Assembly: GCA_963674825.1 (NCBI GenBank)
Contig: OY771587.1
Span: 3,232,001-3,296,000, forward strand
Length of the DNA: 64,000 bases
Reading direction: 5' to 3'
DNA from: Candidatus Cloacimonadales bacterium
GTDB lineage: Bacteria; Cloacimonadota; Cloacimonadia; Cloacimonadales; JAIOQZ01
Shown: positions 7,200-29,373 of the stretch, piece after piece
How positions within the stretch are numbered: the first letter of the stretch is position 1
How the letters are laid out: each line of letters opens with the position of its first letter
Notes under the pieces: generated by a model
What the model was told of the DNA's origin: nothing
The model's input: only the letters and a program-made list of their open reading frames with translations
Database searches by the model: none
Translations under genes and position numbers: made by a program

Positions 7200-8315
7200 A
7201 TGAAAAGCTGTATTACGATCTTGATATTTTCGTTGTTGCTGTCAATTGTCGGCATTGTTTTAGCAGACGAGATGCCCGAAACGACGACAAGCGTGGAGAT
7301 CTCCGATTCAACAGTTGCGATTCTTACCGATTCGGTACAGGTTGTCCTGCCACAATCCGTGCGCATTCTCGGCGTTGGCGATATTATGCCCGGCAGTGAT
7401 TTCCCGGACAGGAAGAAGTACCCCGCCAAGAACGGCGCGAACGTGATCCACTCCGATCTTGTGAAGATTATTCAGTGCGCTGATGTTGCCTTCTGTAATC
7501 TTGAAGGTGCTGTTGGTGATGACATCAAGACAAAGAAGGGCAAGACGTACGCTTTTCGGATTCCCACAAGTTTGGCCGAGCGTTTGGGCGAGTGGGGCTT
7601 CGATCTGGTATCGATAGCGAACAACCATGCCGGCGATTGCGAAGATGCTGGCAGGCACAGCACAATGAAATGCCTCGAATACATCGGGCTGATCTATTCC
7701 GGTTCACTCTTCACACCGGCTGGAGTCACTCTGGAAAAAGATGGCATTACCTACGGATTCATAGCTGTAGCACCGAACAAGGGTTGCAATAATTTCCACA
7801 ATACGAAGCTGATCGAGAATGAGATTCGTGGGCTGGATGAAAAGTGTGACATCGTCATTGTATCAATCCACGGTGGTGCTGAAGGCGAAGACGCCGAACA
7901 CCTGACGAAGAAAGTGGAGTATTACATGGGGGAGAACCGTGGCAATCTCTTCGAACTGACCCACCGGTTTGTCGATGCCGGGGCCGATATTGTATTCGGC
8001 CACGGGCCACATGTTACTCGGGCCATCGAGTGCTACAACGGTCGCTTGATTGCCTACAGCCTGGGTAACTTCTGCACGTACGGACGATTCAATCTCGACG
8101 GTGTCAGAGGGCTTGCGCCTATGATTGAAGTGGAGACTGATCTGAATGGCAAGCTGATTTCCGGCAAAATTTATTCTGTGAAACAGCCCTGGCCGGGAGG
8201 TCCTGTACCGGACGACAATCAGCGCGTTCTGGAGCGTATCATCGATTTGACGGAGCATGACCTTGGCGGGGGAGGAGTTGAGTTCCGCGGTAATCTATTC
8301 TTCCCGATCGAGTGA
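7200..8315 (+). CDS. CapA family metallophosphoesterase-fold protein
   Basis: VGDIM, NLEG, IANNH, IHGG, GHGPHV, YSLGNF; signal peptide. Confidence 0.93.
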   Translation: MKSCITILIFSLLLSIVGIVLADEMPETTTSVEISDSTVAILTDSVQVVLPQSVRILGVGDIMPGSDFPDRKKYPAKNGANVIHSDLVKIIQCADVAFCNLEGAVGDDIKTKKGKTYAFRIPTSLAERLGEWGFDLVSIANNHAGDCEDAGRHSTMKCLEYIGLIYSGSLFTPAGVTLEKDGITYGFIAVAPNKGCNNFHNTKLIENEIRGLDEKCDIVIVSIHGGAEGEDAEHLTKKVEYYMGENRGNLFELTHRFVDAGADIVFGHGPHVTRAIECYNGRLIAYSLGNFCTYGRFNLDGVRGLAPMIEVETDLNGKLISGKIYSVKQPWPGGPVPDDNQRVLERIIDLTEHDLGGGGVEFRGNLFFPIE

Positions 8316-8316
8316 T

Positions 8317-9948
8317 TTAGTGATTAGTCTCCGGGAGGTGGAACGAAAAAGTACTGCCCTTGTCGAGCCTGCTCTCGACCCATATCTCGCCACTGTGTTT
8401 CTGGATGATCTGGCGTGTCATTGCCAGGCCAATCCCGATACCACCCGTTTTACGCTCATTCATTTTACCCAGCTGCTGAAATTGCTCGAATAAGTTGCTG
8501 ATCTCATGCTCTTCGATGCCGCTTCCAGTGTCTTCCACTGAAACCGTTACACCATCGCCTGCTCGTTCTGTCCTGATACGTATGAAACCCGAATCGGTGA
8601 ATTTTACTGCGTTTTCGAACAGGTTCATGACACCCTTTACTATCCAGTCCGCATTCAAATCGACAGGAATAACTTCGGATGAAAGATCCATATACAGCGT
8701 GATTTCCTTGCCGGCGAGAAGCTGCTCCATATCGGGACGAAGATTCTTGATGATCTGATTGATATTGTAGCGCTGCATCTCCAGATTACCGGAAATGAGG
8801 TCAAGACTGCGGAAATCGAGAATGCGGGTAACGATTGCATTGAGCCGCTTGGCGTTCTCACGGATATGGGTTCCGATCTCGATCTGCTCGTCGTTCATCT
8901 CGCCGAGGTCCTGATCGATCAACAATGACATTCCATCACTGATCACTGTGAGTGGCGTGCGAAGCTCATGGCTTATGGCAGCGATGAAGAACTCTTTCAT
9001 GTCCAGGAGTTCCTTAACGTGGATATCTGACTGAATGCTTTCGGAAAGGTTCATATAAAGGTCGCCGATCAAGCGAAGCAGCGGAAAGTTGTGCTGCCAT
9101 TCACGCTGGATGGGCTGCCTGAAGAAAAACGCGATATAGCCTTTCAGTTCTCCTTTGGAAAACATCGGGACAGCTAAGAGTCCGCTACACTGGCAGCGCT
9201 CCATGATCTGAACAACCATCGAATTTTCGATTCTGGCAATATGGGGGAAGAATAAAACCGACTCCTGAGCGAATCGCTCTTGAATCCAGGAGCGGAATGC
9301 CGCTTTAAGCGTAGGAGGAACTCGCTTCTCGATCGATTCTATTTGCAGAAGATTCATCAGGTCGTTATCGAAAAAGACAAGGTGCATCTCATCTGCACCA
9401 ATCTTCTGCGTGATCTTGTCGAACGAGTTCTCCACACCAGGCTTGAGATTCTCTACTTCGATACCCAGTGATTGTGTTGATATTGTTGTCAGGAGCTGTC
9501 CGAATTCCTGAAGATAGCGGATCTCGGCAGTCCTTTCCTGCACGGCAGTCTCAAGTCGTTTGGTGTAGTCTTTGAGATGGAGCGAGTTTTCCACGGCCAT
9601 TTTCAGCTCATAGATACCGAAGGGTTTATGCAGGAAATGGGCGACACCACGTTTATAACAGATTTCCAGAGTCTGATTGTCACCAGCCTGAGTCATTACG
9701 ACAACAGCCCATGGATCTTTATTGGAGAGGTCAATTCGTTCGAGGAATTCCAATCCACCCATGCGCGGCATATTCATGTCGAGAATGATCACGTCAGGAC
9801 GCTTCTTTTCGAACTCGACCAACCCTTCTTCACCGTTTGCAGCTTCGGCAAAGGTGTATTCTGGCGATTCGAGTACTTCGCGTATAATCTCGCGTATCGA
9901 TTCATCATCTTCGACGATTAGTATGTGCCTTATCTGTTCTTCACTCAT
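8317..9948 (-). CDS. Hybrid sensor kinase (REC - GAF-like - HisKA - HATPase)
   Basis: ILIVEDD/LDMNMP/KPF receiver; SHELRTPL; NAVKF, DTGSGI, GIGIGL boxes. Confidence 0.93.
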   Translation of the reverse strand: MSEEQIRHILIVEDDESIREIIREVLESPEYTFAEAANGEEGLVEFEKKRPDVIILDMNMPRMGGLEFLERIDLSNKDPWAVVVMTQAGDNQTLEICYKRGVAHFLHKPFGIYELKMAVENSLHLKDYTKRLETAVQERTAEIRYLQEFGQLLTTISTQSLGIEVENLKPGVENSFDKITQKIGADEMHLVFFDNDLMNLLQIESIEKRVPPTLKAAFRSWIQERFAQESVLFFPHIARIENSMVVQIMERCQCSGLLAVPMFSKGELKGYIAFFFRQPIQREWQHNFPLLRLIGDLYMNLSESIQSDIHVKELLDMKEFFIAAISHELRTPLTVISDGMSLLIDQDLGEMNDEQIEIGTHIRENAKRLNAIVTRILDFRSLDLISGNLEMQRYNINQIIKNLRPDMEQLLAGKEITLYMDLSSEVIPVDLNADWIVKGVMNLFENAVKFTDSGFIRIRTERAGDGVTVSVEDTGSGIEEHEISNLFEQFQQLGKMNERKTGGIGIGLAMTRQIIQKHSGEIWVESRLDKGSTFSFHLPETNH

Positions 9949-9972
9949 GGCTTTACCCGTAGTTATATGAAG

Positions 9973-11913
9973 CTACGATTGCTTTTTTAGCTCGATCAGC
10001 AGTTCATCTACCTTTTTCTTTTTCTCGAAGTTCTGTTGTCTGGAAAGTACTTCAAGTTCGTTTATTGCTTGATTTTTCCGATCCAGACAGATATACGTCA
10101 TGGCGAGTCGAAGGCGTGCGTCAGAGACCTTGTGGGACTGTGGGTATTCATCGATAACAGTCTTGAAATGGCTTGCGCTTCGTTCGTAATCTTGCCGCGC
10201 GTATTGGATTTCGCCAAGCCAGTAATGGACGTTCGGTGCAAGATAATGATGAGGATTCATAGCCAGAAGGTCATTAAACGTCCGCTCGGCTTTTAGAGCA
10301 TCGCCCGACCAAAGCTGATCAAGTGCTTGGTCGTACATACTCTTGAAGTTCATGGATGTCTTGGGTGCTTCCGGTTTCTTGGTTTCTTCAGCCTTTTTTT
10401 CTTCGGCTTTCTTTTCCTCGGGTTTCTTCTCCTCAGCCTTCGGTTTCTCAGCCGGCTTTGGCTTGGTTACCTCAGGTTTCGGTTCAGGCTTCTTTTCTTC
10501 TACTTTCGGCTTCGGAGCAGGAGCTGGCTTCTTCACTGTTTCGGCAGGCTTGGGTTGCTGCTGAATGGGCTGCGTCAACGGGATTGGTTTTTGCCGATTC
10601 GGCTGAAGCTTCTCCATAAGCACTGTCTCGAGATGCAGGCTGTAACCTTCACGATCGGCAGCTTTGAGCTTCGGATAATGGATGCTGACGCTGCAATTAA
10701 GAATATGCTTGTCCAGCTCGCGGAGCAAATTCAAGAACGTACTGCGAATTTCTCTTAAGTACGGGCGGTTTGCATTGTTGAGTAACACCAGATTTTCATC
10801 CGGTGGTGCAATAAGCTCGCCTTTCTTGTTGATATATCCCGTTTGAACCAGTTCGTCGAAGATAAGCTTAGGATCGGTTTTGCGTTGCCGTGCTACCGAA
10901 AGGAAATCTTCCGGTTTCAGCCGGGTCTTGGGTATTACAAAAACCTTAGAGACGATGAATTTCTCGCGAAGACTGAACTCTTTACGGAATTCTTCGAGAA
11001 GATAATCACTTTCGCGGTAGATCTGGCGGATGATACCGCGATAGGAATAACCGTCATTAAACATCACCTTTACGTAGGTTCCCGGACGAACATAGCGACG
11101 ATAGCGGAAATCGAAATAGGTGATAACATAGCGATCGTTGGTGTTCGCGAGTGTCAGGATCGTTTCTGTCTGATCCACGACTTCGTACGGGGTCTTTTTT
11201 ACGGTCGCAACAATGCCGTCGTGCGTTGCGATAAGATGACGGTCGCCATGGCCACCATAGCCGCTTCCGCCGGTGTTACGGACGACAGTTTTTTCGCTGC
11301 CGGCTTCTTTGAGGTTTCGGATCACCAGATATTCGTACTGGATGCTTTTGTTCACCTTTTGCAGCTTGAACTCGATATCTTCTATCTTTTCCTTGTATTT
11401 CCGGAGTTCGGAAGTGGTCAGGAGTTCCTTGCGATAGAGTTCCCGAGCATTTTCCAGCTCTTTTTGCGCTGTTGCAAGCTCTTCCGTGTAGCGATCCTTT
11501 TCCAGTCGCAGAAGTTGCAGGTCTTTCTGTGCGCCGATGATCTTGCTCTGGTCTTTCTGGGTTGTAGTGGAAGTCTGCACAGGTGTGTAAGTTCTTCCTC
11601 CCCAGGCACCTTCGTAATCCACTACCACGAGCGTATCACCGCGATGGACTTCCTGGTTTCGCACGACGTTGATCTCGTCGATCCGCGCTGGGTCAACGGT
11701 TGCAATTCTCGTTTCCGTCGCCGTAAATACCCCCATACCTTTCACAAAGAAGATACGGTTGATCAGGTAATAGAGTGCGAAAACCACCAGTGCAATGATG
11801 ATGGCGAAATAGATCAGCTTGCCGAGCGTTATCCGCTTTCTACGTGGCGGCTCAAGCTTCGACATGGCCTCCGAATGATCGATCAGATCATTACCGCTTT
11901 TTCTCAAGTTCAT
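9973..11913 (-). CDS. HlyD-like membrane fusion protein fused through a P/K/E-rich linker to a CpoB/YbgF-like TPR domain
   Basis: N-terminal TM; lipoyl half-motifs (VVRNQEVHRGDTL; IATHDGIV) around a coiled coil; C-terminal APNVHYWLGE...YPQSHKVSDARLRLA. Confidence 0.8.
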   Translation of the reverse strand: MNLRKSGNDLIDHSEAMSKLEPPRRKRITLGKLIYFAIIIALVVFALYYLINRIFFVKGMGVFTATETRIATVDPARIDEINVVRNQEVHRGDTLVVVDYEGAWGGRTYTPVQTSTTTQKDQSKIIGAQKDLQLLRLEKDRYTEELATAQKELENARELYRKELLTTSELRKYKEKIEDIEFKLQKVNKSIQYEYLVIRNLKEAGSEKTVVRNTGGSGYGGHGDRHLIATHDGIVATVKKTPYEVVDQTETILTLANTNDRYVITYFDFRYRRYVRPGTYVKVMFNDGYSYRGIIRQIYRESDYLLEEFRKEFSLREKFIVSKVFVIPKTRLKPEDFLSVARQRKTDPKLIFDELVQTGYINKKGELIAPPDENLVLLNNANRPYLREIRSTFLNLLRELDKHILNCSVSIHYPKLKAADREGYSLHLETVLMEKLQPNRQKPIPLTQPIQQQPKPAETVKKPAPAPKPKVEEKKPEPKPEVTKPKPAEKPKAEEKKPEEKKAEEKKAEETKKPEAPKTSMNFKSMYDQALDQLWSGDALKAERTFNDLLAMNPHHYLAPNVHYWLGEIQYARQDYERSASHFKTVIDEYPQSHKVSDARLRLAMTYICLDRKNQAINELEVLSRQQNFEKKKKVDELLIELKKQS

Positions 11914-13960
11914 CTTTTTCTACCCTTATATGTAACAGGTTGTTATAGTCATGATACGCCATTCCACGGAAGTTAACAAACACCGATAGTTTGTTGCGCA
12001 GCATTTCTACGCTGTCCCGTAGCTGGTTACGGTTATCAAAATTATCGATATTGACGCCTACAACGACCGGTATGCCGGCGTCTTCGGTATCGTTCATCTC
12101 GTTGTACACTTTTATAAGTAGATCTTCCAGTGATCGCTGGTACGCCATTAGCGTTACTTCATTGACATACGGCAGGATCGTCATAAGATAAGCGGGATCC
12201 GCTTCATCGAAGAATGGAGCGATATCAACTTCGATCCGAATCTGGTCACCGACAAGGCGTTTCACGTACTGAAGCGTTTCTTTGAGAAGTTCCAACCCCG
12301 TGACTTTGTCTGTGTCCCACACCTCGAGGCCCTGCGGTTCGAGGTCAAGATGAAGACCATCGATGCGCTCATCTTCCGGAGCGACGGCATTGTAGTGCAT
12401 TATCTGCTCAATTCTTCTGCCAAGCTCCGGTCGTTTACTTCTGACCAGCCATGAATTTTCCGAGAGCAGTGCGCTGATCTGGATGTTGTGCCGGTGCAGT
12501 TCGGAGATAAGGTTGATCAGATCAGGCGAGCCGGCTTCAAGCTTCTGAATGATCGCCTGCGAGAACGAAAAATAGACGCGATCGATCTTGTACGTGTTGC
12601 AGGTTGTCAGGATTTCACGTGCCTTGCCCTGTGTGAGAAGTTCTTCGGTATTCCAGATCCAGACGCCATTGGAAATATCTTGAGCCTGTTCCGGAGTAGC
12701 CAATTTGAAAACCGATAATGGCAGGAAAGTTGCAAAAGCGAGGTTCATGATCGAGCGTTCCAGCTGAAGCTGTGAGATCTCGTATTCCATCTGCGCCTGC
12801 TGGAAATCAAGCTGTGCCTTATGCATATCCCATGATTGCCAGTCGTCTGTTTGAACGGAAGCGATTTTTAGGCGTTCCTGAGCGATATCACGTTCGATGC
12901 GGATGTATTCAATCTCATTCTGCTTCGATTCGCAGTCGGCATAGAGCCGGATGAGATCATCAATGTTTTCTTCTAACCGCTCCTGATTTTCGATCTCAGT
13001 GTAGCGTTGAGAGACCTTGCGAAGCTTTTTATTGTGTCCCGGGAAAGTCAATATTGAAAGCGGGAAGCTGATTCGCGCGCCTGCTTCGAGGTTGTCGCGA
13101 TCCTGCCCCGAACCATATTCGTACCAGTTGTAGCCACCGTAAATGGTCAGGCTGATATCGCGTAGCGAATTGTAGCGATAGCCGTCAATAGCTTCCTGGT
13201 AGTGAAGCTGACGCCTACCACGCGCATCGTAATAACTGTATAGGCTATCCATGAGAGCGTTGAAATCGGGAAGGTCATGGAAATTGCCGTAATCCTCGAA
13301 GGGAATGGTCTTCGGATCGAGATTATATTTGGCTGCGAAGAGCTCCCGTGTTGCCTGGAACTTGGTCGAATATTCGTCGTATCGGGTATGAACGCGCTCT
13401 ACATCGCGGCTCGACTTCACGAAGTCATCCCGCAGGATTTCACCGAAATAGTATCGACGCTTCACCTTGTCGAACTCGGTGCTGGTCGATGTATCCAATG
13501 CGGAATAGGCTTCTGCCTGGCGCTTGAGGATGAGGAGCTTGAGGTATTCATCGAGAAGCCCTGCTTCGCGTCTGCGGATTAGTTCGTCGATACGGTCGGC
13601 AAGCCTGGCTCGTTCATTCTTTTTCTTTTTAACCTCTGCCGGCGTTGTCACAAAAGTGGTCGTAAGATCCTGTTGCAGTTGCAGCGATGCACGGCTTTCG
13701 GTGCGGTCGTCGCCGATCTCCTCTTCCATATACTCGAGGAAATATCTGCGATAGGACATACTGACGTTCGGACTGTACTGATGTCGGGTGGCGTCGATCT
13801 CATAATCGATCCGCTCCATTTCGGCATTCAGTTTCTGGATCTGATAATCGTTCTCAATCACCTTTTGCTTCAGATCTTCCAGAAACGCGTTCTGACCGAA
13901 TAACCAGGCACATGAAGTTATGAGAATCAATATCGAAACGATACGTTTGGTTATTACCAT
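11891..13960 (-). CDS. TolC-family outer membrane efflux protein fused to a C-terminal glycoside-hydrolase-like TIM barrel
   Basis: Signal peptide; two OEP-like repeats (YSPNVSMSY...LQLQQDL; ISLTIYGGY...ARISFPL); C-terminal GVWIWN...ISALL...IDGLHLDLEP...TLMAY. Confidence 0.75.
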   Translation of the reverse strand: MVITKRIVSILILITSCAWLFGQNAFLEDLKQKVIENDYQIQKLNAEMERIDYEIDATRHQYSPNVSMSYRRYFLEYMEEEIGDDRTESRASLQLQQDLTTTFVTTPAEVKKKKNERARLADRIDELIRRREAGLLDEYLKLLILKRQAEAYSALDTSTSTEFDKVKRRYYFGEILRDDFVKSSRDVERVHTRYDEYSTKFQATRELFAAKYNLDPKTIPFEDYGNFHDLPDFNALMDSLYSYYDARGRRQLHYQEAIDGYRYNSLRDISLTIYGGYNWYEYGSGQDRDNLEAGARISFPLSILTFPGHNKKLRKVSQRYTEIENQERLEENIDDLIRLYADCESKQNEIEYIRIERDIAQERLKIASVQTDDWQSWDMHKAQLDFQQAQMEYEISQLQLERSIMNLAFATFLPLSVFKLATPEQAQDISNGVWIWNTEELLTQGKAREILTTCNTYKIDRVYFSFSQAIIQKLEAGSPDLINLISELHRHNIQISALLSENSWLVRSKRPELGRRIEQIMHYNAVAPEDERIDGLHLDLEPQGLEVWDTDKVTGLELLKETLQYVKRLVGDQIRIEVDIAPFFDEADPAYLMTILPYVNEVTLMAYQRSLEDLLIKVYNEMNDTEDAGIPVVVGVNIDNFDNRNQLRDSVEMLRNKLSVFVNFRGMAYHDYNNLLHIRVEKDELEKKR

Positions 13961-15273
13961 CTTTCCGCCCTTTCTCTGACTCGTTGCGGTACGAAAGGAA
14001 GTTTGTAAGACACCCTGAAAAGCAGCTCGCTAAGGTATGCCGAAGCCCTGATAAGGCGAATGAAATACCCCTTATAGAAGCTGAAAAGCAGAATATACAT
14101 AAATAGGTGGATGTCCTGGTTGCGTTTACCGTTCAAAGACCACGCGATAAGCATCTCCAGAAACACAACGGCGCTGGAGACCACGTGGAAGATAATTAGT
14201 ATTGTCAGGAATGTGTATAGCTTGAAGCTGAGGAAGAGGAACAGGAAGATCACGAAGGTCATGGTAAGAACCAGTTGGAAGAAAACGATGTCCAGCCACC
14301 CGATTAGATTCGTGATGGAGAAATTACTCCACTCAAGGTTCGTCACGTTACGATGCTTTCTCAGCTTGATCTTGATCATACTTGTGTTCCAGCGGAACCG
14401 TTGCTTGATCAGTGCGTATAGCGATTCCGGGACTTTTGTATAACAAATGGCGTCGGCTGCAAAATGGACGCGCCATTTCTTCTTGCGGACTTTTGTCGTG
14501 ATATCCGAGTCTTCACCCGGACCCACCGAATAACCGTGAACCGATTGCAGGATGGAACGCCTGAACGCTCCGAACGCGCCGGACACGATGTAGAGAATGT
14601 TCACGCGGCTGCGGAAACGTCGGCCAGTTGCGATACTGAGCAGATATTCCATACCCTGAAGCGCGGTCACCACGTTCGTATTCGCGTTCAGCACTCGAAG
14701 ATTTCCGCCCACAGCACCCACTTCGGGATCGTAGAAATGGTAAAGAGTGTTCTCGAAGGCACGACGATGGAACAGTGTATCGGAATCGATACCGATGACA
14801 TATTCGCCGCGTGCGTACTGGAGCGCGTGATTTAGCGCACTGGATTTTCCACCGCGAACACTGTTGCGGATCAGCGTGATCTCACCTCGTCTTGCCAGCG
14901 GGAGCGCTGCCTCATAGGTTCCGTCCGTCGAGCAGTCGTCCGAGATGATGATCTGCAAGTTGTTGTACGTCTGTTCCTGCAATGAACGAATCGTTTTGAG
15001 GATGGTCTCCTTTTCATTCATGGAGGGAACGATCACTGAAACGAGTGGCCTTTCGCGGAAGAGCCTTTCCTTGGCGCGATCCCTGAAGAGATTTTCTTCC
15101 GATTTCTGCCGCCTTGGGTGCAGCAGGAATGTCAGAAAACGCGTGAAGAGATAACGCGGAAGATCGAACAGAAGGAAAAACGGCATGAAAATGAAGACCG
15201 TTTGAAGCCGCCAGTGCTGACGGGCAAAGTCTTCCAGAAAGAAGTATGCCGAGTATAGATCCTGTTCGAACAT
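13954..15273 (-). CDS. Processive GT2 polysaccharide synthase (PgaC/IcaA/CESA-like)
   Basis: DDCSTDG, GKSSALN, IDSD, SGAFGAFRR, GED, QRFRW (QxxRW); TM helices at both ends; start at ATG 15273 behind GAGG. Confidence 0.92.
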   Translation of the reverse strand: MFEQDLYSAYFFLEDFARQHWRLQTVFIFMPFFLLFDLPRYLFTRFLTFLLHPRRQKSEENLFRDRAKERLFRERPLVSVIVPSMNEKETILKTIRSLQEQTYNNLQIIISDDCSTDGTYEAALPLARRGEITLIRNSVRGGKSSALNHALQYARGEYVIGIDSDTLFHRRAFENTLYHFYDPEVGAVGGNLRVLNANTNVVTALQGMEYLLSIATGRRFRSRVNILYIVSGAFGAFRRSILQSVHGYSVGPGEDSDITTKVRKKKWRVHFAADAICYTKVPESLYALIKQRFRWNTSMIKIKLRKHRNVTNLEWSNFSITNLIGWLDIVFFQLVLTMTFVIFLFLFLSFKLYTFLTILIIFHVVSSAVVFLEMLIAWSLNGKRNQDIHLFMYILLFSFYKGYFIRLIRASAYLSELLFRVSYKLPFVPQRVRERAERW

Positions 15274-15292
15274 TTCGTTTAGCCTCGTTTCT

Positions 15293-16825
15293 TTAGAATT
15301 CGATGACTTCGTTCTGACGGACAAGCTTTTCAAGTAGCTCGTCGCCGGTTGTTCCGTCTTCGGGATAGGTTACAAACTTGATATCGATGGTGAGCGCAGC
15401 CTTGATGCGCTGCTGGGCCTTCTCCATGATGCCATCGACGACTTTCTTCGCGCGCTTACTGTCAGCTTCCGGGAGGATACTGACGAAGGAGTTCTTGTCG
15501 TAGCGCGCTGGAATATCGACCTTCCAGAGGCTCTCCTTGAGGATTGCCGTGAGGTCTCGGAGGATATCGTGCGCTAATTCTTCGCCACCTTGTTCGATGA
15601 AGTCGTCGAGTCCGACCACTTCGAGAAGCACCAGCGAAAGCGCTCTATCGAACTGTTCAGCACGCTGGAGTTCCTCGCGGAACTTGGTCCGGAAGTAGTT
15701 AAGGTTGAATAGATTGATGTCCTGATCCATCAGCTCCTGCTCGAAGTTAACGGAGAAGAATCGTCCCTGCTGAACCGCTTCGTTTGCCTTGTCGGTCAGC
15801 ACGAAGCTGAAGATGTTCGAGCGGATGGCGTCACCGGCGTAGAATTCGTTTTTACAGTTACGGCACTGGCAAAGGACATCCGGTTCTGTGAACTTGTGCT
15901 GATTTTTGTTGCAGACGAACATCTTGCCGGGTTTGTCGTAGTCAACGCCGATCGCCTCGAGCTCGTCCAGGCATTTCGGGCAGACCAGCGAGAGACCATG
16001 CATGAATTCGCGCTCGGTTCCGATGTAGCCACACTTGTAATGATGGATCGTCGGCATGAGCGAGATATCGGGGCTGCGGTCGGTCGGGCAGACTTCGCGC
16101 AGGTTGAGATTGTGATGGGTGCAGTTGGGGCAGAGGAGGATGCGATCGAAGAAGGTGCGTTTGACCGTACCTTTTTCTTCGAGATAATAAAGCTCCTGCA
16201 GCTCCATGCCTGGCTGTAGATCGAAAAACGATGTGACGTCCTTGTACTCGTAGCCAGATTTGACCAGGATGTTGTAAACTGGGTCGATTTGCGCGATGTT
16301 GCGGTCGATGAGTTCCTTGAGGAATTCCAACCGTTTTTTATCCCGACTGTCAATCGCGAGCGCGGATCCGCCTTCTTCGGGAAGCGCGACAGCGATTTGT
16401 GCGCGACGAAGAACGCTCTGGATACGTGCTGCAAGCTCTTCAGCGTCGTAGGGTTTGGTCATGTAGTCGTCAATACCGAGTTTGAGCGCTTTGATCTTGG
16501 TCTCCTGCGAGACTTTGGCGGTCAGCATAATGATCGGTATGTGACTAACCTTCGGATTGGCACGAATCGCCTGCGCGACTTCGTATCCGTCCATACCCGG
16601 CATCAGAAGATCGAGAATAATCAGATCAGGCGGTTCGTTCTCGATGAACTCAAGCGCTTTTTCGCCTGAATTTACAGAAAAACTGTTATAACCGAGTTTG
16701 CGAAGACGGGTTGTAATGATTTTATTCAGAACAATTTCATCATCGACAACGAGAATTTTTTTCTTGTTATCGTCTTCTGAGTTCATTGCCGTCTGCGGCT
16801 CGTACGTCTCGTTTTTTTCTTCCAT
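15293..16825 (-). CDS. Response regulator: REC - multi-zinc-ribbon (TackOD1-like) - degenerate GGDEF
   Basis: ILVVDDE/LDLLMP/KPY receiver; CPNC..CPTD..HYKCGY..CPKC..GVDY..CRNC; GGDEF position reads ARYDKNSF. Confidence 0.85.
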   Translation of the reverse strand: MEEKNETYEPQTAMNSEDDNKKKILVVDDEIVLNKIITTRLRKLGYNSFSVNSGEKALEFIENEPPDLIILDLLMPGMDGYEVAQAIRANPKVSHIPIIMLTAKVSQETKIKALKLGIDDYMTKPYDAEELAARIQSVLRRAQIAVALPEEGGSALAIDSRDKKRLEFLKELIDRNIAQIDPVYNILVKSGYEYKDVTSFFDLQPGMELQELYYLEEKGTVKRTFFDRILLCPNCTHHNLNLREVCPTDRSPDISLMPTIHHYKCGYIGTEREFMHGLSLVCPKCLDELEAIGVDYDKPGKMFVCNKNQHKFTEPDVLCQCRNCKNEFYAGDAIRSNIFSFVLTDKANEAVQQGRFFSVNFEQELMDQDINLFNLNYFRTKFREELQRAEQFDRALSLVLLEVVGLDDFIEQGGEELAHDILRDLTAILKESLWKVDIPARYDKNSFVSILPEADSKRAKKVVDGIMEKAQQRIKAALTIDIKFVTYPEDGTTGDELLEKLVRQNEVIEF

Positions 16826-16833
16826 GTTGCACT

Positions 16834-19560
16834 CTACTTAAGGTATTTGTTTGTTAATAATTCGCGGATATCGACAAAGCGTTCTTCGATTGTATCGATC
16901 CATTTGAGTATTTCTGGGTCGAAATCCGTTTCACTACTATGTTCGATCCGCTCGCTGACCATTCCGATGCCAACAATGCCCAGTGACAGGCTGTTTGATT
17001 TCAGGGAATGCGCGAAACGGTTCAAATCCGCCAGGTTTCGATCCTTATATGCATTTCTCATGCCACTAATTAGAACCTCGACCTGATCGAGATAGGTTCC
17101 GATAACATCGACCATCTCTTCCTCGAGCGGAAGGAGTTCTTTTTCCAGACGTTCAAAGTCAATCAGTTCGTCTCTGTTTTGCGACATTGGCTTTTCATCT
17201 TTTATTGTTTCAAATTTCGTATGCGTTAGCACTGTAATAAGATCTTCGATGCTGAATGGTTTGCCCATATAATTATCGACGCCGGCCCGATCGAGCCTGT
17301 CCTTAATATCGATATAATCGTAAGATGTCGATACAACGATGCGTGGCTGATGCTCTACAGGAAGGGTTGTCTTGATCTCTTCAGCGATCTCCACGCCGTC
17401 GCGTCCAGGCAAGTTCATATCGATGATCAGAAGATCGTATTTATGTCGGCGTAAGACCTGAAGCGCTTCTTCGCCGGTTGACGTGATATCTGCGTGGTAT
17501 CCCAGCTTCCCCAGATAATTGCTGATGATTTTCTGTTCGAAAATATTGTCATCGCAAACGAGGATTCTGGTGGGATATTGCTCGGCAAGGCGTTTATTGT
17601 CGATATGGTTGCCATTCGTGAATTTATCTTTGATTTCTTCGAGATGGAATGCGCTTGCCAGTGCGTGATACAGCTCTCGTTCTTTGAGCGGCTTGACGAT
17701 CGTAAACGATTCCTCAGAAGACTTGTCGTTGCGAATCGCATGCATCTGATTTCGAGTACCGAGGATCAAGACGGGTAACGTCTCGCGCTTGTACTCAAGC
17801 CGGATTCGATGCAACAAACCGAGGTTGCGGCTTCCAAAGAGCGGGACCGAAATGATGACTGCGTCACTGGAATTGAGCAGGTCGCGGATTTCATTTTGAT
17901 TCATGGTATAATCAATGCGCTGGTAATCCATCCCCCAATATTCTGTATATAGGGGAATAATTTTCCGCATCGTGATATCCGAGCCGATACCGAGAAGCCG
18001 TTTTTTATGAAGAATTTGCTTGAGCTGCTTCGTCGGATCGGGTTCTTTAGCGATCTGCTTTTCTGTGGTTACCGTGAAATGAAAGATAGAACCTTTGCCC
18101 ACTTCAGATTCCACCCAGATCCTTCCACCGAGGAGCTCCGAGAGCTGCCGACAGATGGTCAGCCCCAGGCCAGTTCCACCATGGCGTTTGAAGATGCTCG
18201 AATCAGCCTGGCTGAATGCCATGAAAATCTTTTCGAGGTTTTCTTGCTCAATACCGCTTCCTGTATCCTGTACCTGGAAATGCACTTCGATATTGCCGTC
18301 AGGTAGCACCGTTGAATCGACATACACATAAACATAGCCGATAGTGGTAAACTTGATCGCGTTACTGAGCAGGTTGAGCAGAATCTGGCGGATGCGTTCC
18401 ATGTCGCTATTGATGGTGCGCGGTGTAGCGGGGTTGATATAATATGCGAGCTCGAGGCGTTTCTCATCGGCGTTCTGATCGACGACTTTGAAAGCTTCTT
18501 CCACGCAGGTGTGGATGGACATGGGTTGGTGCTCGATTTCGAGCTTGCCGGCTTCGATTTTGGAGAAGTCCAGCAGGTCGTTAATGATAGTCAGAAGCGC
18601 GTTGCCACTGATTTGAAGGATATTGAGGTAGTCTTCCTGAACAGGATCAAGCACGGTGTCTTTCAGTAGTGTCAGGATACCCAGCATGGAATTGATGGGC
18701 GTTCGGATTTCGTGCGTGATGTGCGAGAGGAATAGCGTGCGGCTTTCGTTTGCGCGTCGGGCATTCTCGATCGCTATACTCAAGCGCTGTTGCACCTCTT
18801 TCTGTTGCGAGAGATCGACCAGCACGGCGAGGAATCCGCGTTTATTCATGAAGTCGACCACCGATTCGACCAGATGAACATCCCACTCGATGCGATTGCG
18901 GTTGGTTATACTCAAATCGTGGTGATTTCGTGTATTGTCCTGAAGAAGCTCCGCTTCGATGGCATCGAGCCTTGCTGCAGTTGATGTGGGGAACACGTCA
19001 GTATTCTTGTATCCAATGACCCGTTCGCGAGGCAGGCCGCACATTTCGATGAATTCTCGATTGCATCCGCGGAAAATCCCGTCCTCGTCCTTAAAAAATA
19101 CAGGATTCGGTACTTCCTGGATAAGCGATTCGATTAACTTGGTGCGGCTGGCGATAACTTGCAGGCTCGAGTCCCCGTCCATGATAAGTGGAGCTGAGCG
19201 GCTAATGAAGTCACTGACAATATCACCTAATAATTGATCATTCCAGGATGGATCGATCATATTCATGTTGGGCAGGCTGGCATGATGATCAGTGAAGATC
19301 GTTGGGTTGTCTGCAATTCCAATGCAAGCGATGTGCGAATGTGTCCTGCGGAAATCGTGGATCATCGCGATTGGCGTATGAGAATCGACAAAATAGACAA
19401 AGTATTTGATATCAAGGTATGTTCGACTGTCGCGAAGCGTATTCCAGCTCGCGAAAGGCGCGTTACTAAAATGATTACTATTACGCAAAGAGTGCATGTG
19501 AGATTCCGGGAATCCCACAAAAATCACGTTGTCCACGATAGATTTTTGCCTGATGTTCAT
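16834..19560 (-). CDS. Cytoplasmic hybrid histidine kinase (PAS - HisKA - HATPase - pseudo-REC - REC - Hpt)
   Basis: PNPVFFKD..G...GCN PAS; THEIRTP; NAIKFT; GGTGLGL; IDMNLPG; AHSLKS Hpt; no TM segment seen; start at ATG 19560 behind AGGA. Confidence 0.93.
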   Translation of the reverse strand: MNIRQKSIVDNVIFVGFPESHMHSLRNSNHFSNAPFASWNTLRDSRTYLDIKYFVYFVDSHTPIAMIHDFRRTHSHIACIGIADNPTIFTDHHASLPNMNMIDPSWNDQLLGDIVSDFISRSAPLIMDGDSSLQVIASRTKLIESLIQEVPNPVFFKDEDGIFRGCNREFIEMCGLPRERVIGYKNTDVFPTSTAARLDAIEAELLQDNTRNHHDLSITNRNRIEWDVHLVESVVDFMNKRGFLAVLVDLSQQKEVQQRLSIAIENARRANESRTLFLSHITHEIRTPINSMLGILTLLKDTVLDPVQEDYLNILQISGNALLTIINDLLDFSKIEAGKLEIEHQPMSIHTCVEEAFKVVDQNADEKRLELAYYINPATPRTINSDMERIRQILLNLLSNAIKFTTIGYVYVYVDSTVLPDGNIEVHFQVQDTGSGIEQENLEKIFMAFSQADSSIFKRHGGTGLGLTICRQLSELLGGRIWVESEVGKGSIFHFTVTTEKQIAKEPDPTKQLKQILHKKRLLGIGSDITMRKIIPLYTEYWGMDYQRIDYTMNQNEIRDLLNSSDAVIISVPLFGSRNLGLLHRIRLEYKRETLPVLILGTRNQMHAIRNDKSSEESFTIVKPLKERELYHALASAFHLEEIKDKFTNGNHIDNKRLAEQYPTRILVCDDNIFEQKIISNYLGKLGYHADITSTGEEALQVLRRHKYDLLIIDMNLPGRDGVEIAEEIKTTLPVEHQPRIVVSTSYDYIDIKDRLDRAGVDNYMGKPFSIEDLITVLTHTKFETIKDEKPMSQNRDELIDFERLEKELLPLEEEMVDVIGTYLDQVEVLISGMRNAYKDRNLADLNRFAHSLKSNSLSLGIVGIGMVSERIEHSSETDFDPEILKWIDTIEERFVDIRELLTNKYLK

Positions 19561-19824
19561 AGTCCTTTTTCCCAACCCGGCAGAAACAGCGTGGACATCG
19601 AACGGACTTCATGATTTCCCCAATAAGCCACGTACTGTCCTACCACGCCATAACATGGAGGATGTCATTTATGTCAATTATAAATTAATCTGAGAAGACG
19701 ATTTTTACTGAAGAATCTGAAATATTTAGGGATCGTAATGTTTTGCTTGTGGGGTAACGGTTTGAAAAGCAGGCCAGAACTCCTTGCGTGACAATCAATT
19801 TAACTGGAATATGTGCTTTTTTGA

Positions 19825-19853
19825 TTGACATATCATATCGGCATAAATATCAT
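19825..19853 (+). promoter_or_regulatory. Sigma70 promoter of the tilS operon
   Basis: TTGACA-17 bp-TATCAT upstream of tilS. Confidence 0.7.
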
Positions 19854-19906
19854 GAATATACAGAATTATCGCAAAGTCGCGTGGCGAAAGCAACGCAATA
19901 TCGGAG

Positions 19907-21349
19907 ATGCACATGACGTTCTTGCGGAATTTCCTGCAACGATTCGAAGATTTTGCCATTGAGAAGAAGCTGCTTCAAAACAGACAGCACATCCTTGTCG
20001 GCGTATCCGGCGGACCCGATTCCACTGCGCTCTTGCAAGCTCTCTACCACTTGAGGCCAAAGTACCGGCTGCATATCCTGGCCGCCCATGTAAACTACAA
20101 CACGCGCGGAGAAGATTCAAAAGCGGACGAAGCATTCGTAAAAAAGCTCTGCTTCGAGCGCAATATCGGTATCGTCTCAAAGCAGGCGCATCTTGACCTT
20201 GATCTCTCCAATTTCGAGAATGAAGCGCGCGAGATCCGTATGGCGTACTTTGAAACGTTGCAGAAGCAATACCGTATTCACCGTATCGCGCTTGGTCATA
20301 ACAAAGAAGATCAGGCGGAGACGGTTCTGTTCCGGATGTTCCGTGGCGCTGCAGTATCTGGCTTGAAAGGGATTCTTCCGCTCAGTGGTGACATCATCCA
20401 TCCGCTACTGCCGTTTTCCAGAAGCGAGATTGAGCATTTTCTTGTCGAGGAAGGCATCCAGTGGCGAACCGATGCGAGTAACCTGGAAAACCATTACACA
20501 CGTAATCGTATCCGCAACGAACTTTTCCCCTGGATTGAAACAAATATCAATCCGCAAATCGTGGATAAGCTATACGATTCGGCAGGCATCTTCGCCGAAA
20601 CGGAAGAAATACTGCGGGATATTGTGCTGAGACGGCTGAACAAGCATAACATCAGCAAGATGGAATTCTCCATCAAGATCCCCATCTCGCTATTGGAAAA
20701 GCAACGGCCTGTGTTGCGGTTTTATATGTATCGCGAGATTTACAACTACCTTAAGGGCGATGAGAAAGACTTTTATACGGTTCACTTCGAGAGGATCGAG
20801 AAGATCTTCGATTCGCGGGGAAGCAAACAGATTGATTTGCCCAGCGATATTGTGCTCTTCAAGGAATACGATCATCTGATATTCTGCCGCAAAGACGCGA
20901 TCGAAGAACCCGAACCCGAAGCCGAGCGCGAAATACCCTCGATTCGAAACCGTTTCATGTTCGGTAGTTACCGCTTCTTCATGAAAAAGGTGAAACAACT
21001 TCCCGCGAAAAAGCGTTCTCCAGTTGAACAAAATGTGTGTTATCTCGATATGGATAAAATCGAGTTTCCTCTCACGCTTCGTTACCGGAGACCCGGAGAT
21101 CGCTTTAATCCCTTTGGTATGGAGCATTCCAAGAAGCTTAAGGATTTTTTCATTGACGAAAAGGTCTCCAGGTTCGAGAGAGATAAGATTGTCATTCTGA
21201 CAGATCAGAATAACATATTATGGATTTGCGGTTATCGTTCCGATCAACGATCAGCGGTTACCGAAGAGACAAAAAATATACTGATGGTTCGCGTGGAGCG
21301 AGTAAACTCGAGCCGTCCGCGAACTGCCAATAGAAAGAAAAAAGGATGA
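19907..21349 (+). CDS. tilS: tRNA(Ile)-lysidine synthetase
   Basis: VSGGPDS PP-loop, GHNKEDQAET, RNRIR, KKLKDFFIDEK; tilS-hpt-ftsH synteny. Confidence 0.96.
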   Translation: MHMTFLRNFLQRFEDFAIEKKLLQNRQHILVGVSGGPDSTALLQALYHLRPKYRLHILAAHVNYNTRGEDSKADEAFVKKLCFERNIGIVSKQAHLDLDLSNFENEAREIRMAYFETLQKQYRIHRIALGHNKEDQAETVLFRMFRGAAVSGLKGILPLSGDIIHPLLPFSRSEIEHFLVEEGIQWRTDASNLENHYTRNRIRNELFPWIETNINPQIVDKLYDSAGIFAETEEILRDIVLRRLNKHNISKMEFSIKIPISLLEKQRPVLRFYMYREIYNYLKGDEKDFYTVHFERIEKIFDSRGSKQIDLPSDIVLFKEYDHLIFCRKDAIEEPEPEAEREIPSIRNRFMFGSYRFFMKKVKQLPAKKRSPVEQNVCYLDMDKIEFPLTLRYRRPGDRFNPFGMEHSKKLKDFFIDEKVSRFERDKIVILTDQNNILWICGYRSDQRSAVTEETKNILMVRVERVNSSRPRTANRKKKG

Positions 21350-27460: not shown

Positions 27461-27675
27461 TGTAACCTCCGTTTGTTTTGACACTGATTAACAAAACCAT
27501 ATCGACTGGCATGGATCTGTCAAAGTATTTTCCTGTAATATGACGTATGCTGTATAAAGCCGTACAAGCATCCTTTGGCATCTCGATTGCACATAGTAAA
27601 TATGGGAAACCGTTTTAGCGGAAAATCTTTCCCATCACTCAATCCAACAGGGAAGTGAAGAATTGAGGATAAGAC

Positions 27676-29373
27676 ATGTGTGGAATCGTCGGAATACTGG
27701 ACAATAGAAATCACCCGAAGCAGGCCGAACTGGATCGTTTCACCGATTCACTGGCACACCGTGGGCCGGATGGTCGCGGAACCTGGCGGGATGGATGCAT
27801 CGCATTGGGACACCGTAGGTTGGCGATACTCGACCTGACCGATACCGGCAAGTGCCCGATGCCCTTCGGAGATAACAACCGCTACTGGATCACCTACAAT
27901 GGCGAGGTTTACAACTTCATCGAATTGCGCCGCGAGCTGGAGTCACACGGCCATCGATTTCGCTCCGAAACCGATACGGAAGTGATCGCCGCAGCCTATG
28001 CCCAATGGGGAAAAGACTGCCTCCTGCGCTTCAACGGCATGTGGGCATTCGCTATCTGGGACAGTGTCGATAAAACCCTTTTTCTTGCGCGCGACAGATT
28101 CGGAATCAAGCCATTCTACTACGCAGTGAGCGGCAGTCGGTTTGCTTTCGCATCCGAGATGAAGGCCTTTCGCGAACTCGCCGAATTCCAGCCGAAGCTC
28201 GATTCCGAAGGTCTGACGGCCTATCTCGCCGACCCCAAAGCAGCGGAAGGCAAGACGGACAGAACGCCGCTCGAAGGTGTTCGCAAGCTCCCCGCTGGTC
28301 ACTGTATGATGCTTGATCGCGATGGAAAGATGCAGCTCACGCGCTGGTGGAGCACCAAAGACCATTTTCCTGAGATTCCGCAAGGCTACCGGCAGCAGGT
28401 CGAACAGCTTCGCGAGCTTTTCCTCGATTCGGTCCGTCTCCGTATGCGCAGCGATGTTTCCATCGGAAGCTGCCTCAGCGGCGGTATCGATTCCAGCGGC
28501 GTGGTGGGTGCGCTGGCGCTTTTGCACAAGCGGGACGCACAGCTTGAACGCTGTCCGCAGGACTGGCAGAAGGCCTTTATCGCGACATTCCCCGATAGCG
28601 CCATCGACGAGCGAACTTACGCCGAAGAGGTGGTCGCCATGACCGACGCGAAGCCCTATTACTGGGTTTTCGATGGTGAACGGGCGGTCCGCAACACGGT
28701 CGATGTAATCTGGTCGCACGAGAGCGTTTATCAGGGGAACATGGTACCCATCTGGGCCACGTACCGCGAGCTCCGGCGCGATGGAACCGTGGTGACGCTG
28801 GACGGTCACGGGGCCGACGAGATGCTCGGCGGTTATATCTGGTATTTCGAGGAGACCTACAATACCCTCAACAGCAAGCTATACGACGATTTCCACCAAG
28901 CGTTGCCAACCCTCCTGCGCAATTTCGATCGCCTCGCCATGGCGCACGGCGTCGAGATTCGTACGCCGTATCTGGACTGGCGTCTGGTCAGCTACATCCT
29001 CGCACTTCCGCCGGAAACCAAGATTGGTAAGGGATTCACCAAGCGCGTCCTGCGCGATGCCCTTGAGGGGATTATCCCGGATCGCATCCGTGAACGCAGG
29101 TTCAAGATGGGTTTCAGTTCACCCATGGTAGACTGGTTTAACGGCGGCATGGAGAAGCTGATCCTGGAGACGATCGAGCACCCACTCTGGAAAAACAGCC
29201 CGTACTGGGACGTAAAGAAAATCAAGCCGGAAATCAAGCTCAAAACCGAACGACACGCCTGGCAAAGCTCCGAAAAGAGCAAGATCAGCAAATATTGGCT
29301 CTATATCAATGCGGTTCTCTGGCATCGATTGTTCATCGATGGCGAGGCACCGGAAAGCCTGAGGACGACATGA
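27676..29373 (+). CDS. asnB: AsnB-family glutamine amidotransferase, probably glycan-modifying
   Basis: MCGI, HRGPD, GHRRLAILD, NGEVYN, RDRFGIKP, LSGGIDSS, GHGADE; ATGA overlap with the giant transferase. Confidence 0.9.
   Translation: MCGIVGILDNRNHPKQAELDRFTDSLAHRGPDGRGTWRDGCIALGHRRLAILDLTDTGKCPMPFGDNNRYWITYNGEVYNFIELRRELESHGHRFRSETDTEVIAAAYAQWGKDCLLRFNGMWAFAIWDSVDKTLFLARDRFGIKPFYYAVSGSRFAFASEMKAFRELAEFQPKLDSEGLTAYLADPKAAEGKTDRTPLEGVRKLPAGHCMMLDRDGKMQLTRWWSTKDHFPEIPQGYRQQVEQLRELFLDSVRLRMRSDVSIGSCLSGGIDSSGVVGALALLHKRDAQLERCPQDWQKAFIATFPDSAIDERTYAEEVVAMTDAKPYYWVFDGERAVRNTVDVIWSHESVYQGNMVPIWATYRELRRDGTVVTLDGHGADEMLGGYIWYFEETYNTLNSKLYDDFHQALPTLLRNFDRLAMAHGVEIRTPYLDWRLVSYILALPPETKIGKGFTKRVLRDALEGIIPDRIRERRFKMGFSSPMVDWFNGGMEKLILETIEHPLWKNSPYWDVKKIKPEIKLKTERHAWQSSEKSKISKYWLYINAVLWHRLFIDGEAPESLRTT

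Follow-up and report, generated by a model that had tools for sequence, protein, structure and literature searches.

The window analysed here is a 64,000-nucleotide stretch of a Candidatus Cloacimonadales bacterium (contig OY771587.1, positions 3,232,001 to 3,296,000 of the forward strand), taken from a 3.9-Mb single-contig genome. On its minus strand lies a six-gene operon that is homologous to the Mxd system of Shewanella oneidensis and that probably makes and exports a polysaccharide (Table 1). Four of the genes make up what we call the core: a switch protein homologous to MxdA, a family 2 glycosyltransferase (GT2), a TolC-like protein fused to a barrel domain, and a HlyD-type adaptor. Two histidine kinase genes flank them.

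An earlier reading of the letters alone (the sequence-only reading) had described six co-oriented genes with overlaps or gaps below about 25 base pairs (bp). We confirmed the order and the tight spacing, with intergenic distances of +8, +19, -7, -23 and +24 bp; these figures take the ATG at 15273 as the start of the GT2 gene, which agrees with the 439-amino acid (aa) database protein P0001. Annotation with Pfam and NCBIfam profiles bore out the domain calls of all six genes, and we called soluble and transmembrane proteins with a hydropathy threshold. As had also been noted, there is no ATP-binding cassette (ABC) ATPase, Wzx or Wzy among the six genes by Pfam, and five neighbouring genes that we scanned likewise have no ABC domain. 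Type I protein secretion is ruled out because the cluster has no ABC ATPase or permease.

Table 1. Genes of the operon, in order of transcription, with positions in the window
Gene	Position	Strand	Domains and their source
Hybrid histidine kinase	16834..19575	-	PAS-HisKA-HATPase-REC-Hpt (Pfam); unannotated N-terminal domain
Switch protein, MxdA homologue, 510 aa	15293..16825	-	REC-TackOD1-GGDEF, the last degenerate (Pfam)
GT2 synthase, MxdB-like, 439 aa	13954..15273	-	GT2 with QRFRW (Pfam)
TolC/OEP protein fused to GH18-like barrel	11891..13960	-	OEP (Pfam); C-terminal domain unannotated in Pfam, barrel from structure model
MxdC-like membrane fusion protein (adaptor)	9973..11913	-	HlyD_3 and CpoB/YbgF-like TPR (Pfam)
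REC-HisKA-HATPase kinase	8317..9948	-	REC, HisKA, HATPase (Pfam); unannotated middle domain

All six genes are found in the same order in three other genomes of the genus, so the cluster is more than a chance arrangement. One of these congeners (G117) has a frameshift close to the end of the last kinase gene, which is either a real change or an assembly error. Across the phylum, the GT2 synthase is present in five of 232 genomes (E 1e-60), namely the four of the genus and one of another genus in the family. This last genome (G121) is fragmentary and 81% complete. Its four core genes are split over two short contigs and show the fusions seen in the window (REC, TolC::barrel and adaptor::TPR). 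A search of 19300-20000 on the operon strand gave no sigma-70-type promoter.

Relation to the Shewanella Mxd system

For the Mxd reference we used locus L194 (genome G1141), chosen by published mxd hallmarks. All four published mxd promoter primers match it without a mismatch, it encodes a 462-aa protein with NVDEF, and a pseudouridine synthase gene lies upstream. One mxd promoter primer had no matches in metagenome contigs, and the primers had no close match in any of 10 other gammaproteobacterial-type loci.

The MxdA of the reference locus is a TackOD1 protein, and TackOD1 is single-copy in both the window's genome and the reference genome. Identity to MxdA is 23.7% over 308 aa for our switch protein (E 5e-29); between the window's GT2 and MxdB it is 29.8% over 436 aa (E 4e-54). 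The best matches of MxdA and MxdB in the window's genome are the window's genes; the reverse search covered the reference locus. For the adaptor, pairwise BLAST with MxdC found no match in the window's genome, while a profile of 14 MxdC-clade sequences ranked the adaptor first in the genome (E 1.2e-11), with two other proteins scoring nearly as well. MxdD had no match in the window's genome at E 1e-4. In a quick tree of 68 GT2s, MxdB falls in one clade (support 100) and the window's GT2 in a different one (support 96), together with sequences from KSB1, Planctomycetota, Alphaproteobacteria and Bacteroidota. Both clades include loci with the TolC::barrel fusion.

The order of switch protein, GT2 and adaptor is the same as in S. 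oneidensis MxdABCD (PMC3691769, PMC7666153, PMC13713693). Both systems also have a protein that joins TackOD1 to a dead GGDEF domain, a receiver-domain input, and GT2s that are 30% identical over the full length of MxdB. In Shewanella, mxdA and mxdB mutants do not aggregate and form no three-dimensional biofilm (PMC3691769). CheY3 binds MxdA there, MxdA binds cyclic di-GMP (c-di-GMP), and the biofilm needs CheY3 to be phosphorylated, by kinases that are unknown (PMC7666153). The differences are that MxdA lacks an intact REC and retains RVTD at its inhibitory site (I-site), and that the mxd locus has no TolC/barrel gene, no kinases, a plain adaptor of the 351-aa type, and a small membrane gene, mxdD, which is absent here.

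The operon is homologous to Mxd but lacks two of its defining features, MxdD and RxxD at the I-site (itself a proxy), and for this reason we file it as a variant of Mxd. The view that the architecture matches no named system was thus not borne out, as the core is homologous to Shewanella mxdABC. That core has already been described genetically in Shewanella, and a phosphorylation input into Mxd has been published (PMC7666153). What is new here is the direct test of Mxd homology, the exchange of the I-site for a receiver together with flanking kinases, and the adaptor::TPR fusion. We found no description of this operon in a literature search that covered titles and the starts of abstracts, mostly outside subscription journals.

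Conservation of the core in other genomes

A search anchored on the GT2 gave 18 loci of this synthase family, four from 15 plasmid matches and 14 from 80 genome loci. All 18 have a TackOD1 gene upstream, 16 of them directly and two with one gene between. The other 66 of the 80 genome loci are generic GT2s with partial matches, which we excluded from the synteny counts (one was examined, and eight served as outgroups). With TackOD1 as the query, 11 of 401 Pseudomonadota genomes and nine of 251 Bacteroidota genomes were above the cut-off; both figures include the seed genome.

The 19 non-seed loci anchored on TackOD1, from these two phyla, all have the GT2 and all have the adaptor; 13 have an OEP gene, and in seven of these it is the OEP::barrel form. 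A co-oriented kinase is present in five, all of them Bacteroidota. Over all 57 loci, many of which are kin, the counts are 57 for the GT2, 55 for the adaptor, 25 for OEP, 13 for the fusion and 14 for a same-strand kinase. From these counts we take the core to be TackOD1, GT2 and adaptor, often with TolC, and the kinases to be local. Of the genes whose co-occurrence the sequence-only reading had proposed to look for, TackOD1, GT2 and adaptor keep together and TolC often joins them. The kinases, which had been counted as part of the system, are a genus-level addition outside the conserved unit, and the kinase-flanked form was found only in the window's genus. In the loci examined, we saw no pump gene that accompanies the core, judging by our own profiles and partial Pfam scans.

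On an Aeromonas caviae plasmid (L006) we found the four core genes and no others of the operon, arranged as they are in the window. This plasmid is pKAM329_3, a 29-kb mobilisable element in which the core occupies 7425-13247 and is surrounded by genes for toxin-antitoxin, partition and recombinase functions; the four-gene cassette is thus mobile. Along with Chryseobacterium taichungense (L020), the plasmid offers a culturable carrier of the TolC::barrel form.

By BLAST, a lipoprotein family, some members with DUF4114, is encoded in or beside 10 related loci (among them L010:14342-15571, L012, L020 and L148-L153), and it may be a fifth component. The homologue in the window's genome (G000:C1:3093135-3094517, L204) is about 150 kb away and adjoins two other kinases.

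The switch, the synthase, the conduit and the kinases

The TackOD1 domain of the switch protein, a multi-cysteine domain, scores 147 bits against a Pfam cut-off of 32. The receiver in front of it is intact (D28-D29, D72, T102 and K124). The GGDEF fold behind it is dead, with YDKNS at the active-site loop and WKVD in place of the RxxD I-site, and the canonical GG[DE]EF motif is absent from this protein and from every aligned homologue. These results support the earlier claim that the c-di-GMP motifs were lost and the receiver kept, and an active diguanylate cyclase is ruled out by YDKNS standing where GG[DE]EF would be. We modelled residues 155-510 with a predicted local distance difference test score (pLDDT) of 91.6. 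A fold search with the model confirmed that the C-terminal domain has the GGDEF fold (Z 18.0, root-mean-square deviation (rmsd) 2.2, 144 aligned), and all of the matches of the TackOD1-GGDEF model were taken up by the GGDEF part. When the two proteins are aligned, NVDEF of MxdA pairs with GLDDF of the window's protein and not with the active-site loop, and RVTD of MxdA pairs with WKVD. In the reference protein (L194:7379-8767), NVDEF, which the literature treats as the GGDEF analogue of MxdA, lies about 30 residues before the I-site and the active-site loop.

RxxD is kept in all 22 MxdB-clade proteins that have the domain (L009, without a GGDEF domain, is excluded), in three of 15 Bacteroidota and in none of the five from the window's family. 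Among 119 homologues, a set of kin biased toward the query, 106 of the 108 scorable proteins have it, and none of the 119 has an intact receiver by the profile search. All five proteins of the window's family do have an intact receiver, as do two Bacteroidota proteins (L152, without RxxD, and L155, with it) and one from a Planctomycete. We believe the fused REC could be the cis form of the CheY3-MxdA interaction, by analogy with Shewanella and from about one evolutionary event. The N-terminal domain of MxdA as a worn-down receiver was a candidate that we set aside: its match to the REC profile (hhalign probability 12.8%, E 0.002, 36 columns; controls about 0.1%) was too weak for a call.

TackOD1 (PF18551) has been described as a multi-cysteine output domain that occurs with REC in archaea and whose function is obscure (PMC5847659). 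The domain in that description is archaeal, whereas here it is bacterial, is followed by a dead GGDEF and is tied to a GT2 gene. We found no link of TackOD1 to MxdA in the passages of PMC5847659 or in the literature, in a search mostly outside subscription journals. Haloarchaeal plasmids carry TackOD1 genes too (five of 20 plasmid records), and the one examined (L098:6878-7861) has no annotated GT2 or adaptor nearby. In a Planctomycete (L019:8835-9836) the TackOD1 protein has REC and no GGDEF, and a separate CBS-GGDEF gene sits between the TackOD1 gene and the GT2.

The GT2 has D113, D163-x-D165, GPGED255 and Q291-R-F-R-W295 and no C-terminal regulatory domain. It is 33% identical over 257 aa to PgaC of Escherichia coli, which is of similar size (441 aa), and so stands closer to PgaC than to a BgsA-like protein (22% over 259 aa); its best NCBIfam match is PgaC/IcaA at 174.5 bits, below the cut-off of 422.3. 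Genes for TviB-like dehydrogenases of UDP-N-acetylhexosamine occur in 10 related loci, co-oriented in nine, and all five that we scanned score best to TviB; there is none in the window's operon. The closeness to PgaC, the TviB-like genes and the GH18-like barrel favour N-acetylhexosamine, or its uronic acid, as the sugar. Membership in the poly-N-acetylglucosamine (PgaABCD) systems was rejected on the PgaC score and on the lack of any BLAST match to PgaA or PgaB in the genome at E 1e-4. We also rejected cellulose synthase (41 bits to the CelA profile, cut-off 699) and BgsA, since the BgsA-like protein has 669 aa and the 439-aa GT2 is 21.6% identical to it over 259 aa.

The OEP domain of the TolC-like protein (PF02321, residues about 20-415) follows a signal peptide, falls in two stretches and scores 40.1 bits against a cut-off of 22. 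The whole protein is 25% identical over 676 aa to P0254, whose own OEP match has E = 1.6e-24. Neither the OEP profile nor P0254 hit a solved structure at E 0.01. The C-terminal 263 aa (residues 424-686) were modelled as an eight-stranded (beta/alpha)8 barrel with a pLDDT of 84.8. Its fold matches are Cwp19 (Z 19.7, rmsd 3.6, 243 aligned), GH18 chitinases (Z 17.4-17.8), SleL (Z 17.3), and GH5 enzymes and the hydrolase domain of PgaB (16.4-16.6). Foldseek adds GH168 and GH191, a likeness to GH153 of PgaB was also seen, and the ESM Atlas gives unnamed clusters (0.93) and GH18 (0.88). The idea of a glycoside hydrolase-like domain on TolC is thus supported by the model.

The barrel has no Pfam model of its own, and no Pfam match in the window's protein; five of 25 relatives match PF00704 below the cut-off. 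Its profile finds 2,957 clusters (at 50% identity) at E 0.001; a word-index search gave three matches, all at genus level. Residues H537, D539, E541, P542, M605 and Y607 are conserved at 93-99%, including an H-x-D-x-E-P motif, and may form a site for catalysis or binding, with the polymer or peptidoglycan as possible substrates of the modelled barrel. The GH18 signature is DxxDxDxE, and the barrel has DGLHLDLE, with His in place of the second Asp. The family may be a new hydrolase family. Among the best 150 barrel relatives, 96 carry OEP by profile, 35 stand alone and 19 are of other kinds, six of these with OEP in Pfam. The fusion had been seen as distinctive, and its uniqueness is refuted by these counts, since at least 96 of the best 150 have it. 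We found no description of it in our literature search, which was mostly outside subscription journals. Methylocystis (L008:11362-13876) has a split form of the fusion, in which the barrel has a gene to itself and a conventional TolC gene comes next.

The adaptor has one transmembrane helix (33-51), a helical insert of about 70 aa, a linker rich in Pro, Lys and Glu, and a C-terminal CpoB/YbgF-like TPR. This HlyD::TPR fusion was found only in the window's family. The insert, at about 10650-10860 on the minus strand (residues about 350-420), lies in the adaptor's last barrel and has no Pfam match; there is one copy in the window's protein and apparently two in G121 (L203:1708-3960).

As a set, these domains support a synthase-dependent polysaccharide system that would use an adaptor and a TolC-like channel with no ABC pump. 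Other systems resemble it in part. BgsA has a C-terminal c-di-GMP-binding extension, which the window's GT2 (439 aa) does not have. In BgsBA with TolC of Sinorhizobium meliloti, a GT2, a HlyD adaptor and TolC are a proposed tripartite exporter without an ABC pump, and TolC is required for the mixed-linkage glucan, although its role in export may be indirect (PMC13438883). That system differs in its 669-aa BgsA-like protein, in c-di-GMP activation and in a tolC outside the bicistronic operon (PMC13438883), and the 28 kb that we examined has no TackOD1 partner or barrel fusion. The protein in question is the one behind the adaptor gene on pSymB in an unannotated record, and we take it to be BgsA from this position. 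By its GT2, the window's operon is closer to Mxd than to BgsA/BgsB (30% over 436 aa against 22% over 259 aa). PgaABCD shares a synthase of the same size and a GH18-like barrel associated with export; it exports through a TPR-porin, unlike the adaptor and TolC here, and no PgaA or PgaB homologue is present. In cyanobacterial cellulose synthase-HlyD-TolC systems, an adaptor and a TolC-like exporter likewise replace BcsB/BcsC (PMC8892547); those have BcsZ, where this operon has the TackOD1 switch and the TolC-fused barrel.

Both kinases are soluble, with no hydrophobic segment over the threshold, and in both the H, N, G and receiver motifs are intact. The phospho-sites of the hybrid kinase are H288 (HisKA), D719 (REC) and H856 (Hpt), numbered from TTG 19575, although the true start may be ATG 19557. 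Those of the REC-kinase are D57 (REC) and H327 (HisKA). The hybrid kinase is 61-70% identical within the genus. Wiring of the kinases to the switch protein is plausible. Control by phosphorylation, as proposed earlier, fits the intact receiver, but it is not without precedent, given the published input into Mxd.

Proposed mechanism and alternatives

We put the probability at about 60% that this is an Mxd-type operon in which the GT2 makes a polymer that is exported via the adaptor and the operon's own TolC-like channel, and in which the switch protein, phosphorylated most likely by the flanking kinases, turns the synthase on. The gene content, the domain folds, the homology to MxdA and MxdB, the linkage of the core across phyla, the intact phospho-sites and the loss of GGDEF and RxxD are what we observed; the five steps below we infer, and they are given in falling order of confidence. 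The GT2 would be a processive synthase-translocase, and for that reason no ABC pump would be needed. The adaptor and TolC would form a periplasmic conduit. The MxdA homologue would act directly on the synthase, and its fused REC would play in cis the part that CheY3 plays in trans. The hybrid kinase would supply the phosphate, passing it from H288 to D719, H856 and then D72 of the switch protein, and the REC-kinase might tune or drain this relay. Lastly, the TolC-fused barrel, in the periplasm, might cut or bind polymer that escapes the conduit. The product would be an extracellular polysaccharide, probably containing N-acetylhexosamine.

There are several points that weigh against this interpretation. 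In the quick tree, the MxdB clade and the clade of the window's GT2 join at a support of 78 against 11 outgroups, which is not firm. Six of the 11 sampled Pseudomonadota loci have no linked TolC. Loss of the I-site and gain of REC are not strictly coupled, as one Bacteroidota (L155) has both RxxD and REC and 11 of 15 have neither, and the five related genomes amount to about one evolutionary event. RxxD is only a proxy for a c-di-GMP site, the binding site of MxdA being unmapped in the literature examined, and the genome retains three canonical GGDEF motifs. The polymer of the cluster is putative, and the Mxd exopolysaccharide is itself termed putative in the literature. The kinases diverge faster within the genus (61-84% identity) than the synthase (92-94%), and they were not found in G121, fragmentary as that genome is. 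With 52 kinase and 72 REC open reading frames in the genome by profile, adjacency does not fix their wiring.

These last points bear on an alternative in which the machine is the same and the flanking kinases are passengers or have their targets elsewhere; the MxdA homologue would then be phosphorylated by other kinases of the cell or still answer to c-di-GMP through a non-canonical site. Besides the many kinases in the genome and the frameshifted copy in G117, it is favoured by the 14 of 19 sampled loci that have no co-oriented kinase and by the REC-fused homologues L152 and L155, which have none in the 20 kb examined. However, both kinases are joined to the core by gaps of 8 and 24 bp and flank it in all four genomes of the genus. 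Their distinctive domains (the N-terminal region of the hybrid kinase and the middle domain of the REC-kinase) were found, among five genomes, only in the genus, and they were not found in three near-complete family members without the operon. We consider this alternative unlikely. Less likely again, and in our view quite improbable, is a GT2 that adds sugar to a lipid or protein, or whose product is a short glycan, with the adaptor and TolC serving an inner-membrane pump encoded elsewhere. The GT2 does have only two strong transmembrane segments at the hydropathy threshold used, its best solved-structure match by sequence is 6yv7, a GT2 entry of non-processive type, the adaptor profile is closest to EmrA, and the possibly indirect role of TolC in glucan export (PMC13438883) would agree with it. 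But QxxRW, GPGED and DxD show little or no variation across 51 sequences, the protein has the size of PgaC, no pump gene tracks the core, and mxdB mutants have matrix-type phenotypes.

The barrel could instead act on peptidoglycan and open the wall for assembly of the adaptor and TolC, with the CpoB-like TPR as a link to wall synthesis. This would replace the last step only and is compatible with the rest of the Mxd-type explanation; we regard it as possible, though doubtful. The strongest fold match, at Z 19.7, is Cwp19, which we take to be a peptidoglycan hydrolase, and this counts against a role on the polymer, as does SleL at Z 17.3. SPOR domains are appended to two of 25 scanned barrel relatives (P0285 and P0313), and, given the topology of TolC, a periplasmic domain outside the sealed tunnel would miss the polymer. 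On the other hand, GH18 chitinases, GH5 and PgaB come within about 3 Z units of the top match, too close for the fold to tell the two roles apart, and 35 of 150 relatives stand alone. Hydrolases that act on the system's own polymer (PgaB, BcsZ and AlgL) are also the norm in synthase-dependent operons.

Going further than the Mxd-type explanation, one could read the operon as a self-contained, c-di-GMP-independent machine, in which a private phosphorelay makes a zinc-ribbon subunit open the synthase and a new polymer based on N-acetylhexosamine is exported. In that reading a dedicated TolC trimer would bear three copies of a new glycoside hydrolase family, the TPR arm of the adaptor would tie the conduit to the wall, and the TackOD1-GT2 family, which occurs in about 3% of the Pseudomonadota and Bacteroidota genomes sampled, would be an uncharted synthase-dependent class with Mxd as a reduced member. 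We hold this reading as a whole only tentatively and think it more likely wrong than right. Synthase-dependent systems are usually gated by c-di-GMP, and an I-site swapped for a receiver, with recruited kinases, would show another way of gating. It would give the orphan TackOD1 domain a concrete role and suggest how CheY3 acts on MxdA. The TolC inside the operon also makes direct conduction of a polysaccharide by TolC testable, a point that PMC13438883 leaves open.

Elsewhere in the window, a CapA/PGA_cap-family gene (7200-8315, plus strand) converges on the end of the operon with a 1-bp gap and is probably unrelated. A 2,860-aa open frame at 29142-37724 (plus strand) encodes a giant multi-glycosyltransferase, in which TPR accompanies three stretches of GT2, two of GT4 and two of CDP-glycerol glycerophosphotransferase, and it is preceded by an asparagine-synthase-like amidotransferase at 27673-29373.

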